Below are positions 2,725 through 9,055 of a stretch of DNA of 64,000 bases, in pieces (the first letter of the stretch is position 1; the number at the start of each line of letters is the position of its first letter). Position numbers and translations under genes: made by a program. The DNA comes from Planctomycetota bacterium. Its GTDB lineage: Bacteria; Planctomycetota; PLA2; JAEUHO01. The stretch is from positions 1-64,000 of the forward strand of contig CBDCWP010000012.1 in assembly GCA_965223505.1 (NCBI GenBank), in the 5' to 3' direction. The notes beneath the pieces were generated by a model. The model searched no databases, was not told the origin of the DNA, and saw only the letters and a list, made by a program, of their open reading frames with translations.

Positions 2725-3939
2725 CTACTCGAACTCGGCCAGGAACGCCTTGACCCGCTCGAGGCCGTCCTCGATGTCGGGCCGGCTGCACGCGTACGAG
2801 AATCGAATCGCGAACGGCGCCTCGAACACGTCGCCCGGCACGACGGCGGCGTGCGCGTGTTCCAGCATCAAGGCCGCCAGCCGTGTCGCGTCCTGCACCA
2901 CCTCGCCCCGGAACGACTTTCCGAAGTACGGCGACACGTCGGGCAGCATGTAGAACGCGCCGTCCGGAACGGTGCCGTGCAGGTCGGGGATCGAGGCCAG
3001 GCTTCGATGCATGACGTCGCGGCGCTTGCGGAACACCTCACACATCTTCGCGATGTCTTCGACGGGTCCCCGCAACGCCGCCAGCGCGGCGCGCTGTGCG
3101 ATCTCGGGCGGGCCGCTGAACGCGTGACTCTGGAGCCGCACCATGCGCTGGATCCACTCCGCCGGGCCGCCGGCGTACCCGATCCGCCAGCCCGTCATCG
3201 AGAACGCTTTCGAGACGCCGTTGACGATCATCGTCCGGTCGCGCGCTTCCGGCGCGAGCGCACCGAACGACTTGAAGGTCGCTGGTGCGTAGGTGAGGTG
3301 CTCGTAGATCTCGTCGCTGATGACCGCGATGTCGTGCTCGACGGCGATGCGTCCCAGCTCGGCCTGCACGTCGTCGGGTTGGACGGCGCCCGTCGGGTTG
3401 CCCGGCGAGTTCAACATCAGGACCCGCGTGTTCGGCGTGATCGCGGCGCGCACGCGGTCGGGGTCGATGATGTAGCCGCTTTCCGGCGCCGTCGGAACGA
3501 ACACGGACGTGCCGCCGCACGACTGCACCATCTTCGGGTACGAGAGCCATGCGGGCGCGGGCAGGATCACCTCGTCGCCTTCGCGGACCAGGACCCGCAG
3601 CGCCAGGTACAGAACGCCCTTGGCGCCGACGCTCACGATCGTCTCGGTCGGCTTCAGGTCCGGTAGACTCGTCGCGCCGAGGTTCTCCGCGACGGCTTCG
3701 CGCAGCGGCATGATCCCCGCAGCGGGCGCGTACTTCGTTCGTCCCTCGCGAATGGCCGCGATCCCGGCCTCCTTGATGTAGTCGGGCGTGTCGAAGTCCG
3801 GTTCGCCGGCCGCGAAGGGCGAGACCTTGATGCCCTCGGCCCGCATTCGTTTGGCCGTGGCGCTGATGGCGAGTGTCTGCGACTCCGCGAGGGAGCCCGC
3901 GGTGGGCGTGAAGTCCAGCATGAGAGGGGTTTCCAGCAT
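2725..3939 (-). CDS. PLP-dependent class I/II aminotransferase (aspartate aminotransferase-like)
   Basis: GEPDFDTP, NSPGNPTG, SDEIY, SKAFSMTGWRIGY; start at 3939 or 3921. Confidence 0.92.
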   Translation of the reverse strand: MLETPLMLDFTPTAGSLAESQTLAISATAKRMRAEGIKVSPFAAGEPDFDTPDYIKEAGIAAIREGRTKYAPAAGIMPLREAVAENLGATSLPDLKPTETIVSVGAKGVLYLALRVLVREGDEVILPAPAWLSYPKMVQSCGGTSVFVPTAPESGYIIDPDRVRAAITPNTRVLMLNSPGNPTGAVQPDDVQAELGRIAVEHDIAVISDEIYEHLTYAPATFKSFGALAPEARDRTMIVNGVSKAFSMTGWRIGYAGGPAEWIQRMVRLQSHAFSGPPEIAQRAALAALRGPVEDIAKMCEVFRKRRDVMHRSLASIPDLHGTVPDGAFYMLPDVSPYFGKSFRGEVVQDATRLAALMLEHAHAAVVPGDVFEAPFAIRFSYACSRPDIEDGLERVKAFLAEFE

Positions 3940-4192
3940 GAAGGAGGAGCCTACCCGACCCCTCCCTCGCCGCCCCGGCGTACGCGAGTGCGCGCCTGCG
4001 AGAAAGGGACGCAGGGGCGCCGTGCCGTCGTCCAAGACGACGCCCATGCCGCCCCGTTCCCACACTCCGCGCGGCGCCCCCGCGCACCCTCGGTCCCGGA
4101 GCCGACCTCAGGGTAGTTTCGGGGGCCCCAGATCCCGCGGTGCGCCGCGCCGCGTACGACCGGCGACCGGTGCCGCGAGCGAAGGAACAGCC

Positions 4193-6484
4193 TTGCCGAA
4201 GCGACTGAAGAAGTACCTGCGCCGCCTGCTGTACCTGGTGGTGATCCTCGCCGTGCTCGCCATTGGGGCGTTCTGGTACTTCTGCCATTCGCCGCTGGAG
4301 GGCAGCGTCGAGGAGATGGGGTTCCTCGTCCCGCGCACGGCGGAGTTCATGCTGCGCGGCTCCTACGAGGATCTGAAGGCGACGGGCTGGGTCCAGGCCA
4401 ACGTGCTGAGCGATCCCCTTCATCCATCCATCCGCGAGCAGCTCCACGACCGGCTGCCGCAGATGATGGCCGAGACGTTCCAGTCGCTGCATCAACAGGA
4501 CGCCTCGTTCGTCGCCGAGTACATCCAGAACCACGCGGGATTCTCCGCATCCGGGTTCGCGGACGATGCCGACGACACGGACGTCTGGAGCCTCATTCGC
4601 CTCTGGCAGGAGTGGGTCACGCGCGACGTGCCGGACGGCGCCGATCGCGTGAAGCTGGCCGTCGAGATCCAGGAGGGCTTCATCGCTTCGCAGATCCCGC
4701 TCGGTCTGATCAGCATCGACGCCGAAGAAGACGGCGCCGCCGGCGAGGTCGTCGTCGCCGGTCGGCTCTGCGAGCGGCTCGGCATCGAGCACGGCGCGCC
4801 CCGTTGGCGCGAGATCCTCTTGTTGAAGCGGCTGCCGTGGAAGCCGCGGGCGGGCCTCGCCGCGGTGCTCGGTCACGAGTGGATCCGCGACATGGTGGTG
4901 GATCCCTCGCGCACACGCATTTCGCCCGAGGGCGACAACGGCGTCTACAAGGTCCTGTTGACCAACGTGCGGCCTTCGCCGGAGCGCGACCGCGCGGGCT
5001 GCAGCGCCGGCTTCGTGATACCGCCCGAGAACGTCTGGTACCTGATGCGGATCAAGGACGTGATCGCCCTCAGCAACTCGCCGGACCTGATCGACGACGT
5101 CGCCAACCTCGCTACGAATTACGAAGAAGGGCAGTCCGGGCAGAGCTTCATCGACCGACCGGACTTCGACGTGAAGCAGAAGGCGGGCCACGTCGCGCTG
5201 GCCGCCCAGCTCGACCCGCTGCACACCTGGGGGCATTCCGTGCTGGCGGAGGTCGGCGAGATGGGGGAGGTGCTCAACCGCTTCCTCACCATCGCGTCGC
5301 TCGACAAGGCCACGAACGGATCGCTTTCCTTGCAGAACGAAGACATGCTCGTCGGCCGCGTCGACGTCGAGTACATGGACCTCAAGCTGGCGCCCGAGGT
5401 CGAGAGCAAGGTCTACAGACTGCAACCGCAGTCGGTGCGCAAGGGGCTGGCCGAGCTCGTGCCGGCGGAGGACACGTGGCTCGTCGCGATGTTGCGCGCG
5501 GACCCGATGCACTTCTTCAACGCGATTCTGTTGGCGCTGCCCGACGGCGATCGCACGCTGATCGAGAACAATCTGCGCGGCACGAAGTACAACCGGCTCG
5601 AAGACGTCCTGCACGAGCTCGCGCCCCGGCTCGACGACACGGCGGCGGTCGCGATCGCGCGGCTGAGCGACCTCATGGACAAGCAGGAGTTCGCGACCTG
5701 GGCTTCGAAGGAGGACGAGAATCCGGTCGAGATCGCCGCGTTCATGATGCGCATCAGCGAGGCGACCAATCAGGACGAGCTCAACAAGTTCCTCGAGGAG
5801 CGCATCGAGATCCTCGGGTTCAGCGACGAGATCCAGACGAAGACGCACGGCGACTTCACGTATTCACGGATCACGCCGAAGGCGAAATTCCGCGACTTCA
5901 AGCTGATCACGCCGTGCTACATCCTCGCGCAGGACCACTTCATCTTCGCGTTGAACGAGACGTACTTCCGGAAGATCCTGGACACGATGGCGGACCCGCA
6001 GAAGCGTTCGCTGGCGCAGGACGAGGCCTTCCGTTTCACCATGGAGCCGCTGCAGGAGCGCGGGCACCTCGGCATTTTCGTGGACCTCGAGAAGTTGTTC
6101 CGGGTGCCGCCGGACAGTGAGCCCGGATCGCAGCCGCGCGGGCACATGTGGGACCGTCGCAACCTGTGGGTGCAGCAGGCGAAGGACGAGCGCGAGGAGG
6201 GCATCCAGTACCGGCAGGAGCTCGAGCGCAAGAAGCGGCAGGAGAAGGGCGGCCAGGCGCTGAACGACCAGGAGCTGATGTACATCGACGAGCAGGTCAT
6301 CGAGTACATGAGGGGCTGGCAGGACCGCATGTATCCGGAGTACGTCGAGGAGTACCGGAAGTCGCTGCTGCAGTGGCGCCGCCTGCACGGGATCGGGCTC
6401 GTGGCGACGGCCTACCCGGACCAGAGCAAGCTGGAGTTGTCGACCTCGTTGCTGCTGCGCGAGGCCGAGGCGTACGCGAAGTAG
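4193..6484 (+). CDS. Membrane-anchored hypothetical protein (~763 aa, single N-terminal TM helix)
   Basis: GAAGGA RBS then TTG at 4193; basic N-terminus followed by a hydrophobic helix; typical codon bias. Confidence 0.7.
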   Translation: MPKRLKKYLRRLLYLVVILAVLAIGAFWYFCHSPLEGSVEEMGFLVPRTAEFMLRGSYEDLKATGWVQANVLSDPLHPSIREQLHDRLPQMMAETFQSLHQQDASFVAEYIQNHAGFSASGFADDADDTDVWSLIRLWQEWVTRDVPDGADRVKLAVEIQEGFIASQIPLGLISIDAEEDGAAGEVVVAGRLCERLGIEHGAPRWREILLLKRLPWKPRAGLAAVLGHEWIRDMVVDPSRTRISPEGDNGVYKVLLTNVRPSPERDRAGCSAGFVIPPENVWYLMRIKDVIALSNSPDLIDDVANLATNYEEGQSGQSFIDRPDFDVKQKAGHVALAAQLDPLHTWGHSVLAEVGEMGEVLNRFLTIASLDKATNGSLSLQNEDMLVGRVDVEYMDLKLAPEVESKVYRLQPQSVRKGLAELVPAEDTWLVAMLRADPMHFFNAILLALPDGDRTLIENNLRGTKYNRLEDVLHELAPRLDDTAAVAIARLSDLMDKQEFATWASKEDENPVEIAAFMMRISEATNQDELNKFLEERIEILGFSDEIQTKTHGDFTYSRITPKAKFRDFKLITPCYILAQDHFIFALNETYFRKILDTMADPQKRSLAQDEAFRFTMEPLQERGHLGIFVDLEKLFRVPPDSEPGSQPRGHMWDRRNLWVQQAKDEREEGIQYRQELERKKRQEKGGQALNDQELMYIDEQVIEYMRGWQDRMYPEYVEEYRKSLLQWRRLHGIGLVATAYPDQSKLELSTSLLLREAEAYAK

Positions 6485-6492
6485 CGCTCTCC

Positions 6493-6520
6493 TTGACAGG
6501 CGGGGTCCGGTGGCTACCGT
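6493..6520 (+). promoter_or_regulatory. Sigma70-type promoter for the tRNA
   Basis: TTGACA-N16-TACCGT about 30 nt upstream of the tRNA. Confidence 0.6.
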
Positions 6521-6549: not shown

Positions 6550-6638
6550 GCCGGGATGGCGGAATTGGCAGACGCGCTAGACTAAGGATCTAGTGACCAG
6601 AGATGGTCTTGAGGGTTCAAGTCCCTCTCCCGGCACCA
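6550..6638 (+). tRNA. tRNA-Leu, anticodon AAG
   Basis: Acceptor stem GCCGGGA/TCCCGGC plus A-CCA; D-arm with GG; anticodon stem CTAGA/TCTAG with loop CT-AAG-GA (anticodon 6584-6586); long variable arm GACCA-GAGA-TGGTC; T-arm GAGGG-TTCAAGT-CCCTC. Confidence 0.93.
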
Positions 6639-6861
6639 CGCCTCCTCGCAGCCTGCGGCTGCGACCGGTCCCTCGCTTCGCTCGGCCCTCCAGACTTCGC
6701 CTTCGGGAGACGCGCGAACGCGCGTCCGACTTCGTGCATTCTCTTCAAGGGGGGGGAATGGTCCTCTTCCGGGCTCGAATTGGCTGCGCCAACTTGCCCT
6801 ATCCCCCTGCGGCGGCCGCCTTGGGCGCCCGCAATCGTGGAGGTGGCGTAGGGTGCTTCGC

Positions 6862-7221
6862 TCAACGGAAGCGCTGGATGAGTTTCTCGAGCATGCGGCA
6901 GACCTGTGCCGCGAGGTGGAGTGTTTGGAGGACGGCATGGGGTGATGCGAGTCGGCGGAGCTCGATGAGTTCGAGGGCGGCGGCGCATTCGGTGCATTCG
7001 GCTTGGGCGATGGTGTAGCGATGGGCTTTGTCGCGGGGACTGCGTCTCGCGGCGCCTTCGCCGATGTTGAGGAGTGTGGAGTCGGCGGCGCGTCGGAGTT
7101 GATCGGCGAGTTTGGCGCGACCGCGAGGTAGGTGGTCGGCGATGTCACCGGCTTTGATGGCGAATTCACGGGCGACGCGATAGACGTGGAGGGAGTGGAA
7201 GGCGAATGTGGGTCGATTCAT
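6862..7221 (-). CDS. Four-helix-bundle protein (23S rRNA intervening-sequence protein / Avd-like family)
   Basis: FHSLHVY...LADQLRRAADSTLLNIGEG...YTIAQAECTECAAALE pattern; 119 aa. Confidence 0.85.
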   Translation of the reverse strand: MNRPTFAFHSLHVYRVAREFAIKAGDIADHLPRGRAKLADQLRRAADSTLLNIGEGAARRSPRDKAHRYTIAQAECTECAAALELIELRRLASPHAVLQTLHLAAQVCRMLEKLIQRFR

Positions 7222-7237
7222 TGCAGGGGTGACTCCA

Positions 7238-7610
7238 GATCGTTTCCGCGTGGCGACATGCCGCGCGCGCATCTGAGGTGCGGCGTGTCGCCACGCGGAG
7301 CGATCTCCCATCCCTGATCCCTTTCCCCATCCCGATCCCTAGGCGACATGCCGCGCGCGCATCTGAGGTGCGGCGTGTCGCCACGCGGAGCGATCTCCCA
7401 TCCCTGATCCCTTTCCCCATCCCGATCCCTAGGCGACATGCGCGCGCGCATCTGAGGTGCGGCGTGTCGCCACGCGGAGCGATCTCCCATCCCTGATCCC
7501 TTTCCCTATCCCTGATCCCTTTCCCCATCCCGATCCCCATTCCTATCCCTAGGCGACATGCCGGGCGCGTATCTGAGGCGCGGCGAGTCGCCACGCGGGG
7601 CGATCTCCCT
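7238..7610. repeat. Array of four palindromic (hairpin) repeat units
   Basis: GGCGACATG starts at 7252, 7342, 7432 and 7552 (periods 90, 90, 120); each unit has the inverted repeat GGCGACATGCCGC...GCGGCGTGTCGCC. Confidence 0.92.
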
Positions 7611-7815
7611 TCCCCGTCCCCGTCCCTTTCCCCATCCCCTTCCCTTTCCCCATCCCCATCCCGATTCCCTTTCCCCATCCCGATCCCCTTCCCCGTCCCC
7701 ATCCCGATTCCCCATCCCCATCCCCATCCCGATCCCCGATCCCTTTCCCCATCCCCATCCCCATCCCCATCCCCATCCCCATCCCCATCCCAGTCCTATC
7801 CCTCCCCCCCCCCCA
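7606..7815. repeat. Degenerate hexamer tandem repeat (CCCCAT/CCCGAT/CCCCGT)n
   Basis: Visible run of CCCCAT-type hexamers ending in a poly-C tract. Confidence 0.9.
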
Positions 7816-8128
7816 CTCATCCCTCTGGTGTCCGAGCTGTCCTCCCATCCCTTCCCTCCCCCTCCGAGCGCACCACCTAACACCACCCCAAACTCCCCGG
7901 TGACATTCCGTACACATTCCCCTCGAACAGCCCCCTCGATTCATCTGGCTTTCGCACCGCACGGAAGGTTGGGCCCGTGAGCGGATTGGTAAACTCGCCC
8001 CTGGTTGGAGGGCGCAGCGTCCCCGACCGATAACCAGGTTGGGTGGAGAGTGTGCCCGCAACCGCGGCGCCGACTCCTCCCGCGGGGATCCCAGCTGGCC
8101 CCGCAGGCAAGATCTATGGAGGGTTCCG

Positions 8129-9055
8129 ATGCGGAATCGATGGACGAAAGTTTCGGCCCTGGCGATGACACTCTGTCTCGTCGCGGGTTGTTCTTCTTCA
8201 CCCCTCGACGGGGTCAACCTCTCGAGTCTGAACCCGTTCGACAGCTCGTGCGACACCTGCGCGGTCGATCCCTGTGCCCCCGAGCCGGATCCCTGCGCCC
8301 CGACGCCGGATCCCTGCGATCCCTGCGCGACCCCCGTCGCCGTGCAGCAGCAGCCCGGCCGTCCGGACGCGAAGCCCGGCGAGGTGTGGTGCTACATCCG
8401 CGTTCCCGCCGTCACCGAGACGGTGACCGAGAACGTGTGCGTGCAGCCCGCCACGATCCGCAAGGTCTGGGTGCCGCCGGTGCAGGAGGAGATCGAGGAG
8501 CAGGTCTGCACCTGTGAGGCGCAGGTCGTCACCGAGACGATCCCCGCCAAGTTCAAGGACGAGGTCGAGCAGTACTGCGTCGCGCCGGCCAAGACCGAGT
8601 GGCGCCGCGTCGAGTGCGAGCCGACGTCCCTGGGCGCCAAGGAGCAGGTCGGCGAGTGCTGGACGATCGTCGAGATCCCGGCGCAGTACGAGACCCGCAC
8701 GCGTCGCGTCTGCATCCAGCAGGCCCAGTGTGTGCAGCGCACCATTCCGGCCAAGTACGCGATGCAAAAGCGTCTCGTGACCACCTGCGCCGGCTACTAC
8801 AAGGACGTCGAGGTCCCCGCGGTCTACGAGACGAAGACCCGCGAGGTTCAGGTCTGCGGCCCGCGCTGGGAGTGGCGCCGCACGCACGAGTGCGAGGTTC
8901 CCGCCGAGAGCGGCGGCATGGCTCCGATCGAGGACGCCGCGCCCGCCGGCATCGGCTCGCCCGACGCCGAGGCGCTTCCGCCCGCGGCCGACGACAACCT
9001 GCCTCCGGCCGGCGAGCTTCCGCCGCTGGATCCGCTCGCGCCCGACGGCGAGTAG
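8129..9055 (+). CDS. Cysteine-rich lipoprotein with DPC repeats and 23-aa PAxY repeats
   Basis: GGAGG RBS; lipobox VAGC; 20 Cys; Pro/acidic C-terminal tail. Confidence 0.8.
   Translation: MRNRWTKVSALAMTLCLVAGCSSSPLDGVNLSSLNPFDSSCDTCAVDPCAPEPDPCAPTPDPCDPCATPVAVQQQPGRPDAKPGEVWCYIRVPAVTETVTENVCVQPATIRKVWVPPVQEEIEEQVCTCEAQVVTETIPAKFKDEVEQYCVAPAKTEWRRVECEPTSLGAKEQVGECWTIVEIPAQYETRTRRVCIQQAQCVQRTIPAKYAMQKRLVTTCAGYYKDVEVPAVYETKTREVQVCGPRWEWRRTHECEVPAESGGMAPIEDAAPAGIGSPDAEALPPAADDNLPPAGELPPLDPLAPDGE

Follow-up and report, generated by a model that had tools for sequence, protein, structure and literature searches.

The only tRNA gene called by ARAGORN in the 64-kb window, the whole stretch of DNA that was analysed, is a tRNA-Leu gene with the anticodon AAG. 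It occupies positions 6550..6638 of the forward strand (89 nt) and scored 55.4 bits with the Rfam tRNA model RF00005, against a gathering score of 29. The tRNA belongs to class II, with a long variable arm at 6594-6609, the discriminator A (A73) at 6635 and an encoded CCA at 6636-6638. A long variable arm together with A73 is the mark of leucine identity. The anticodon arm of 17 nt (6577..6593, forward strand) has the stem ctaga/tctag and a loop formed by C32 U33 A34 A35 G36 G37 A38, that is, C-U-A-A-G-G-A at 6582-6588; positions 30-40 of this arm read GACUAAGGAUC. The anticodon was placed by ARAGORN at 6584..6586 of the forward strand, and its first base, A34 at 6584, is where deamination to inosine presumably takes place. 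A first-pass annotation had described an intact class II tRNA-Leu(AAG) with A73, a long variable arm and an encoded CCA, and ARAGORN, RF00005 and the sequence all agree with that description.

A promoter-like element lies 29 nt before the tRNA, at 6493..6520 of the forward strand. It consists of a -35 box TTGACA (6493-6498), a 16-nt spacer and a -10-like box TACCGT (6515-6520). In all 23 loci of the family that were inspected, the orthologous tRNA is preceded by TTGACA or TTGACT and then by a TAnnnT-like box, and because the boxes are kept in every one of them, 6493..6520 was taken as a conserved promoter. The earlier statement that the gene has its own TTGACA promoter holds for the box and its conservation, whereas the sigma-70 consensus scan called no promoter upstream of tRNA-Leu(AAG).

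The tRNA gene is flanked by two protein-coding genes on the same strand, one for an 898-aa protein upstream (3788..6484) and one for a 338-aa protein downstream (8039..9055). Neither neighbour matched a known family in NCBIfam or Pfam, though both are kept across the family, and they served as synteny anchors to relatives with a GAG gene. In relatives, roughly 300-470 nt separate the tRNA from the start of the downstream gene, and the interval 6639-8038 of the window holds about 1 kb of extra DNA. Within this extra stretch, on the reverse strand, there is a gene for a PF05635 '23S rRNA-intervening sequence protein' (6862-7311, 66 bits). The stretch may be the remnant of an insertion beside the tRNA.

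Base 6584 was checked in the Logan contigs of three sequencing runs (X1, X2 and X3), which span 6557-6900 or 6551-6595. No other letter was found over these spans, and no variant is listed at 6584. The three runs come from one study with two samples, probably the source of the genome, and the check was made on assembled contigs, so it shows the presence of the base while rare variants would escape it. The A that the first-pass annotation had wanted verified is unchanged in the assembled contigs of all three runs; A34 is the true base and no assembly slip. In addition, a 218-nt contig (X19) from an oligo-dT RNA library of sediment, in an unrelated study, is identical to 6550-6638 with 0 differences and has other flanks. 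This match indicates that a close relative with the identical 89-nt tRNA lives elsewhere.

The assembly to which the window belongs (G000) is a MAG of 5.15 Mb in 44 contigs with 67.4% G+C, 92.5% complete and with 1.7% contamination. Its RpoB shows 64-65% identity over the full length to three MAGs of Planctomycetota or Pirellulaceae and 62% to genomes of the same phylum, and partial matches of 50-51% to two Lujinxingiaceae or Deltaproteobacteria MAGs. On this likeness of RpoB, G000 is accepted as a planctomycete.

ARAGORN made 66 tRNA calls in the whole assembly. The leucine tRNAs are one each with the anticodons AAG, CAA, TAA and TAG and two with CAG; no GAG was present among the 66 calls in this 92.5% complete assembly. 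A DNA search of G000 with the window tRNA found only the gene itself and Leu(CAG), and the GAG genes of relatives were found at 81-84% identity. Since the same search finds those genes, an assembled family-type GAG gene in G000 would have shown; an unassembled one is possible in a genome that is 92% complete. The only other A34 tRNAs of G000 are two Arg(ACG). We propose that tRNA-Leu(AAG) is the only tRNA of the cell for CUC and CUU.

Some other calls in G000 deserve mention. Thirteen tRNA genes lie in about 1.1 kb at G000:C40:191174-192297, among them the second Arg(ACG), with the loop CUACGAA, a 77-nt Leu(CAG) without the long variable arm, a Met tRNA of 69 nt and a Trp tRNA of 71 nt. This array looks like a mobile or phage-type one, not a housekeeping one. 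Three calls of 'tRNA-???', whose anticodons have 4 or 2 nt, and one of Arg(GCG), 103 nt long (G000:C13:102042-102132, C21:479064-479147, C14:20110-20181 and C40:228906-229008) are probably false calls or degenerate genes.

Leucine codon usage was counted in 2,346 long ORFs of G000 filtered by positional G+C, with 1.2 million codons. CUC is the commonest leucine codon, with a share of 42.3% among them and a frequency of 40 per 1000 codons, confirming the abundance claimed for it at first reading. It is followed by CUG (40.0%), UUG (10.7%), CUU (5.4%), CUA (1.5%) and UUA (0.1%). In every family member, too, CUC ranks first or second among the leucine codons (2,100-14,000 codons per relative). 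The genomes with AAG sit in the lower G+C half of the family. No codon shift with AAG was seen, as CUC/(CUC+CUU) tracks third-position G+C in the AAG and GAG groups alike, in small samples of genomes that are kin. Usage in these samples is no different from that of GAG relatives beyond the effect of third-position G+C, and codon reprogramming along with the AAG gene was not seen.

The family was sorted by a pattern with the D arm, U33, A35-G36 and G37 fixed and position 34 free, applied to 29 species genomes. AAG was found in 6 of them (G000, G014, G015, G021, G041 and G043), GAG in 19, both in none and neither in 4 (G003, G013, G022 and G044, 55-93% complete). Follow-up searches in these last four genomes gave CAG, CAA or TAG genes only. 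The first-pass annotation had asked whether Leu(GAG) is absent, and GAG was found neither in G000 nor in any other of the 6 family genomes with AAG.

The neighbours of the tRNA were then compared. A homologue of the 898-aa protein adjoins the tRNA in 18 of the 24 loci tested (all 5 of the other AAG loci, and 13 of the 17 GAG loci from the family), and a homologue of the 338-aa protein in 15 of the 24 (5 of 5 and 10 of 17, respectively), several of the GAG loci with a missing neighbour being short contigs. The shared neighbours therefore identify the AAG gene as the positional orthologue of GAG and not as an additional gene. It had been foreseen that relatives might carry GAG at this locus while a normal Leu(GAG) gene existed elsewhere. 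Most relatives do have GAG at the locus, but the AAG genomes have no GAG elsewhere, and the comparison therefore shows an orthologous switch, not an error: as judged from gene order, GAG at the locus has been replaced by AAG.

These observations also bear on whether AAG could be an artefact, an unused pseudogene or a contaminant, with a working Leu(GAG) in unassembled DNA. Such an explanation draws on the state of the MAG (92% complete, 1.7% contamination) and on a base check made on contigs, mostly of the probable source samples. It is extremely improbable, because the cloverleaf is intact, the gene lies between the neighbours that flank GAG in relatives and has the same conserved promoter, and AAG is kept in 6 family genomes, in none of which GAG was found.

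The switch involves more than position 34. The Leu(AAG) arm of G000 and G014 has the stem ctaga/tctag and the loop CU[AAG]GA, and that of genus g16 has ccaga/tctgg with the same loop, while the family Leu(GAG) arm has ctagg/cctag and the loop UU[GAG]GG. For G000/G014 and for g16, this makes five changes per 17-nt arm between AAG and GAG, at positions 31, 32, 34, 38 and 39: the pair 31-39 goes from G-C to A-U, U32 to C, G34 to A and G38 to A. The rest of the tRNA is 81-84% conserved between AAG and family GAG. The ancestral form at the locus, the family tRNA-Leu(GAG), has the same promoter boxes and shows 81-84% identity where matched over its full length.

The changed arm resembles that of tRNA-Arg(ACG), the canonical TadA substrate. 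The housekeeping Arg(ACG) of G000 (on C31) has the stem cctga/tcagg and the loop CU[ACG]GA, and in positions 30-40 the Leu(AAG) arm equals it except at 35 (A35 versus C35). C32, U33, A34, G36, G37 and A38 are common to both tRNAs, and they differ in the amino acid, in the class I body of Arg(ACG) and in its C35 in place of A35. The Arg arm GA-CU[ACG]GA-UC occurs in all 24 family genomes in which the gene was recovered, with AAG or GAG alike. G37 and A38 were already present in the substrate recognised by TadA, and it is in the direction of this substrate that the arm of tRNA-Leu changed.

One family member, G043, has the arm ctagg/cctag with the loop CU-AAG-GA, so that only 32, 34 and 38 are changed, on its own GAG-type body, and it keeps the T stem of its GAG clade. 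By its arm, its body and its place among GAG genomes on the RpoB tree, G043 is an independent, partial repeat of the arm-remodelling route.

The number of origins in the family was evaluated on a maximum-likelihood tree of RpoB, which leaves out G022, with only 285 residues aligned, and five genomes in which RpoB was not matched. The AAG genomes do not form one clade on this tree. G012, with GAG, pairs with G014, with AAG (87% support), G043 falls inside a GAG clade (94-100% support), and G000 pairs with G003, where neither form was found. A hand parsimony count requires at least four changes on this tree, the relevant nodes having 64-87% support. On the other hand, G000, G014, G015 and G041 share in their AAG genes a T stem, GAGGG/CCCTC, that no GAG gene shows, which suggests one allele lineage for these four. 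This means either that the single-gene tree errs at those nodes of 64-87% support or that the allele passed from one relative to another. Separate origins for G043 and for the other AAG genomes therefore make two the minimum that we claim in the family, in a range of two to four.

A single full-length TadA is encoded in G000 (C40:220161-220694, reverse strand), next to tRNA-Ser(CGA). It matched PF14437 with 157.9 bits, its HAE and PCxxC zinc motifs are visible, and E-values against solved TadA proteins were 3.5e-56 (7cph), 1.7e-49 (2b3j, S. aureus), 6.9e-44 (1z3a, E. coli) and 7.8e-40 (2nx8). By alignment inspected by eye and by a column scan, no column separated the 6 AAG from the 17 GAG family TadAs. 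When G043 was left out, three columns separated the groups, one of them right after the conserved HN (T/A versus R/L); this split may reflect descent and not function, since the five genomes are grouped in a single region of the RpoB tree. A C-terminal extension of the sort described in connection with the S. pyogenes TadA was considered as a mark of AAG and discarded, as it is present in genus g16 only and not in G000 or G014. The broadened TadA of the first-pass annotation is thus not supported: there is one ordinary orthologue, no column tracks AAG, and the change that can be seen is in the tRNA arm. The visible adaptation, as far as these alignments tell, lies on the tRNA side.

Inosine could in principle come from a deaminase other than TadA, such as the TadA-like paralogue at G000:C13:76822-77250, given that G000 has 4 PF14437 matches and that this paralogue has 41% identity to TadA and a CDA-type zinc-binding domain. 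At E<=1e-20, it was detected in only 1 of the 6 AAG genomes (G000 itself), and a similar one is present in the GAG genome G011; for both reasons, it does not track AAG. Moreover, the remodelled arm mimics the TadA substrate specifically, and a source of I34 other than TadA is therefore very unlikely.

For the S. pyogenes enzyme, the editing consensus is reported as YUAMGRA (PMC11472039). The loop CUAAGGA fits this consensus, and a loop of the GAG type, having G38, would fall outside it. CUAAGGA does not match the strict E. coli-type motif YUACGAA, A35 and G37 being different, and the housekeeping Arg(ACG) of G000 has G37 too. As described in the same source, tRNA-Leu(AAG) of S. pyogenes is fully edited to I34 and is deaminated by its own TadA in vivo and in vitro, while the E. 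coli TadA did not deaminate the streptococcal tRNA-Leu(AAG) in vitro (PMC11472039). Given this failure of the E. coli enzyme, tolerance of A35 is not to be assumed. Activity of a Streptococcus TadA on tRNA-Leu(AAG) and an A-to-I signal in tRNA-seq are also described in PMC13249217.

Taken together, the gene and its conservation, the replacement of GAG at its locus, the likeness of the arms, the presence of TadA and the codon usage are best read as follows. Very probably, tRNA-Leu(AAG) is the sole tRNA for CUC and CUU, the orthologue of a GAG gene with an Arg-like arm, and its A34 is converted to I34 by an ordinary TadA. At the GAG locus, G34 would have changed to A and the arm would have been rebuilt until it equalled the Arg(ACG) arm except at 35. 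The single ordinary TadA of G000 would then deaminate A34 to inosine, and the resulting tRNA-Leu(IAG) would read CUC, CUU and, redundantly with tRNA-Leu(UAG), CUA. We infer here that the gene is expressed, that A34 is deaminated and that TadA is the enzyme.

Two points make this reading attractive. Deamination to IAG by TadA is likely because no other tRNA is cognate to CUC, the commonest leucine codon, and reading through I34 is the most economical explanation because CUC is the most used codon and Leu(GAG) was not found. In the absence of G34, only I34 pairs well with CUC. The first-pass proposal that CUC is decoded by a tRNA-Leu(IAG) is consequently retained as regards the intact gene, the Leu(GAG) gene that was not found, the prevalence of CUC and the economy of I34, but not as regards the broadened TadA that accompanied it.

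If A34 stayed unmodified, the tRNA would read mainly CUU, and CUC would depend on A:C wobble or on four-way decoding by tRNA-Leu(UAG). Unmodified A34 is described for the Thr and Ser tRNAs of Oenococcus oeni (PMC8072771), and the fact that no TadA change tracks AAG is compatible with it. The A kept at position 34 in the X19 contig, the only RNA-library contig bearing the tRNA, is likewise compatible with it; given its flanks, this contig may stem from carried-over DNA or from a tRNA precursor of another organism before processing, and it carries no information on editing. According to the account in PMC11066159, unmodified A34 tRNAs tested in E. coli read largely U-ending codons only, unless the first two positions are both G-C. 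Against an unmodified A34 stand the frequency of CUC, 8 times commoner than CUU and 4% of all codons, and the usage of CUC, which does not drop in AAG genomes. An unmodified A34 would also leave the repeated change of 32 and 38 toward the Arg(ACG) arm without a reason, even if C32 and A38 could serve ribosomal decoding instead of TadA recognition. We therefore regard decoding by an unmodified A34 as unlikely and keep deamination to I34 as the preferred reading.

The AAG gene is not confined to this family. In a sample of the phylum, AAG was found in 24 of 401 genomes and 15 of 287 genera, with a match to A34 or G34 in 252 of the 401; these counts are lower bounds, since the pattern misses tRNAs with other D arms. 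The AAG genomes are distributed over six families (four in f1, six in f6, one in f10, eight in f50, four in f54 and one in f61), and all 24 are without GAG by this pattern, their count of A34-or-G34 matches being equal to that of A34 matches. All 27 AAG genes of this sample have A38 and Y32, with the loop CUAAGGA in 24 and UUAAGGA in 3, and the tRNA bodies differ by family.

Within family f50, three genomes (G204, G337 and G309) have the loop UU-AAG-GA, with U32 and G31-C39 kept and only 34 and 38 changed, and another genus has the full GACUAAGGAUC arm. The UU-AAG-GA form may be an early stage of the remodelling. In family f54, a 678-bp contig (G402:C23:1-678) carries a Leu(AAG) identical to that of G015, beside the different AAG genes of G402 itself, and is probably bin contamination.

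Among named species genomes, the search, with positions 32 and 38 free in the pattern, gave at least 119 loci with Leu(AAG) in many phyla. The matches listed include Streptococcus and other Lactobacillales, Clostridia, Akkermansia and other Verrucomicrobiota, Prochlorococcus and Actinomarina, as well as Planctomycetota, Alphaproteobacteria, Sumerlaeia, Cloacimonadota, Synergistaceae and others. The loops of the 118 Leu(AAG) genes among the matches listed are CUAAGGA (100), UUAAGGA (12), UUAAGGG (5) and UUAAGGU (1), and YUAAGGA accounts for 112; the exact 11-nt arm GACUAAGGAUC is present in 84 of the 118. The view that such a tRNA is rare outside some Firmicutes had to be abandoned in light of these loci and of the 24 of 401 genomes in its own phylum.

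In the literature, bacterial I34 tRNA-Leu is called rare in PMC8266599 and PMC8072771, and PMC13249217 assigns 'almost all' tRNA-Leu(AAG) genes of bacteria to Bacilli and names Mycoplasma and Prochlorococcus in passing. A full-text literature search for a planctomycete with inosine, TadA, A34 and Leu found no report among the matches listed. The kind of tRNA is thus already known from Lactobacillales, and what is new is the planctomycete case, in a phylum for which no report was found.

On balance, we lean slightly towards the view that Leu(IAG) decoding has arisen many times across bacteria, each time through copying of the Arg(ACG) arm and acceptance by an unchanged TadA, at least twice in this family and across six families of the phylum sample. 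If this were true, many native TadA enzymes would already tolerate A35, and a GC-rich genome could rely on I34 for its most abundant leucine codon (CUC, 4% of all codons). The family offers a natural experiment outside Bacilli, with close relatives that have G34 or A34 at one locus, an arm remodelled in steps for which G043 is an intermediate, and no matching change in TadA. It makes testable the question of whether inosine wobble expands through a tRNA that imitates an existing substrate or through broadening of the enzyme, and the comparative evidence on how the switch happens is unusually clear.

The closest known system is that of Lactobacillales, where Leu(AAG) is converted to Leu(IAG) by TadA (Oenococcus oeni, S. 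pyogenes, S. mutans and S. pneumoniae) and where the tRNA shares both its anticodon and its loop, C-U-A-A-G-G-A, with the gene described here. Among the matches listed, loci of Streptococcus have the 11-nt arm GACUAAGGAUC unchanged. In the genomes studied here AAG and GAG exclude each other, likewise per family in Lactobacillales as presented in PMC13249217, and G000 has one TadA gene and has kept tRNA-Leu(UAG), as in the Lactobacillales system. There are also differences. G000 is a planctomycete with 67% G+C, CUC as its main leucine codon and no visible codon shift, whereas Lactobacillales are A+T-rich and are described as recoding from UUA toward CUU and CUC (PMC13249217). The two TadA substrates of G000 differ at 35 only, its Arg(ACG) having G37, whereas those of S. 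pyogenes differ at 35 and 37 in the account of PMC11472039. Editing has been demonstrated in S. pyogenes, whereas in G000 it is predicted from the genes.

The other comparison is with eukaryotes, where tRNA-Leu(AAG) is the substrate of ADAT2/ADAT3 and an A34 Leu tRNA replaces the G34 isoacceptor, as here. ADAT2/ADAT3 is a heterodimer that, according to the description in PMC11472039, accepts eight tRNAs with differing loops, whereas G000 has a single TadA and only two kinds of A34 tRNA, with near-identical arms. The eukaryote-like expansion of inosine wobble suggested at first does not describe this genome, in which only Leu has joined Arg and no further A34 tRNA is present; the likeness to eukaryotes lies in the replacement of a G34 leucine tRNA by an A34 one.
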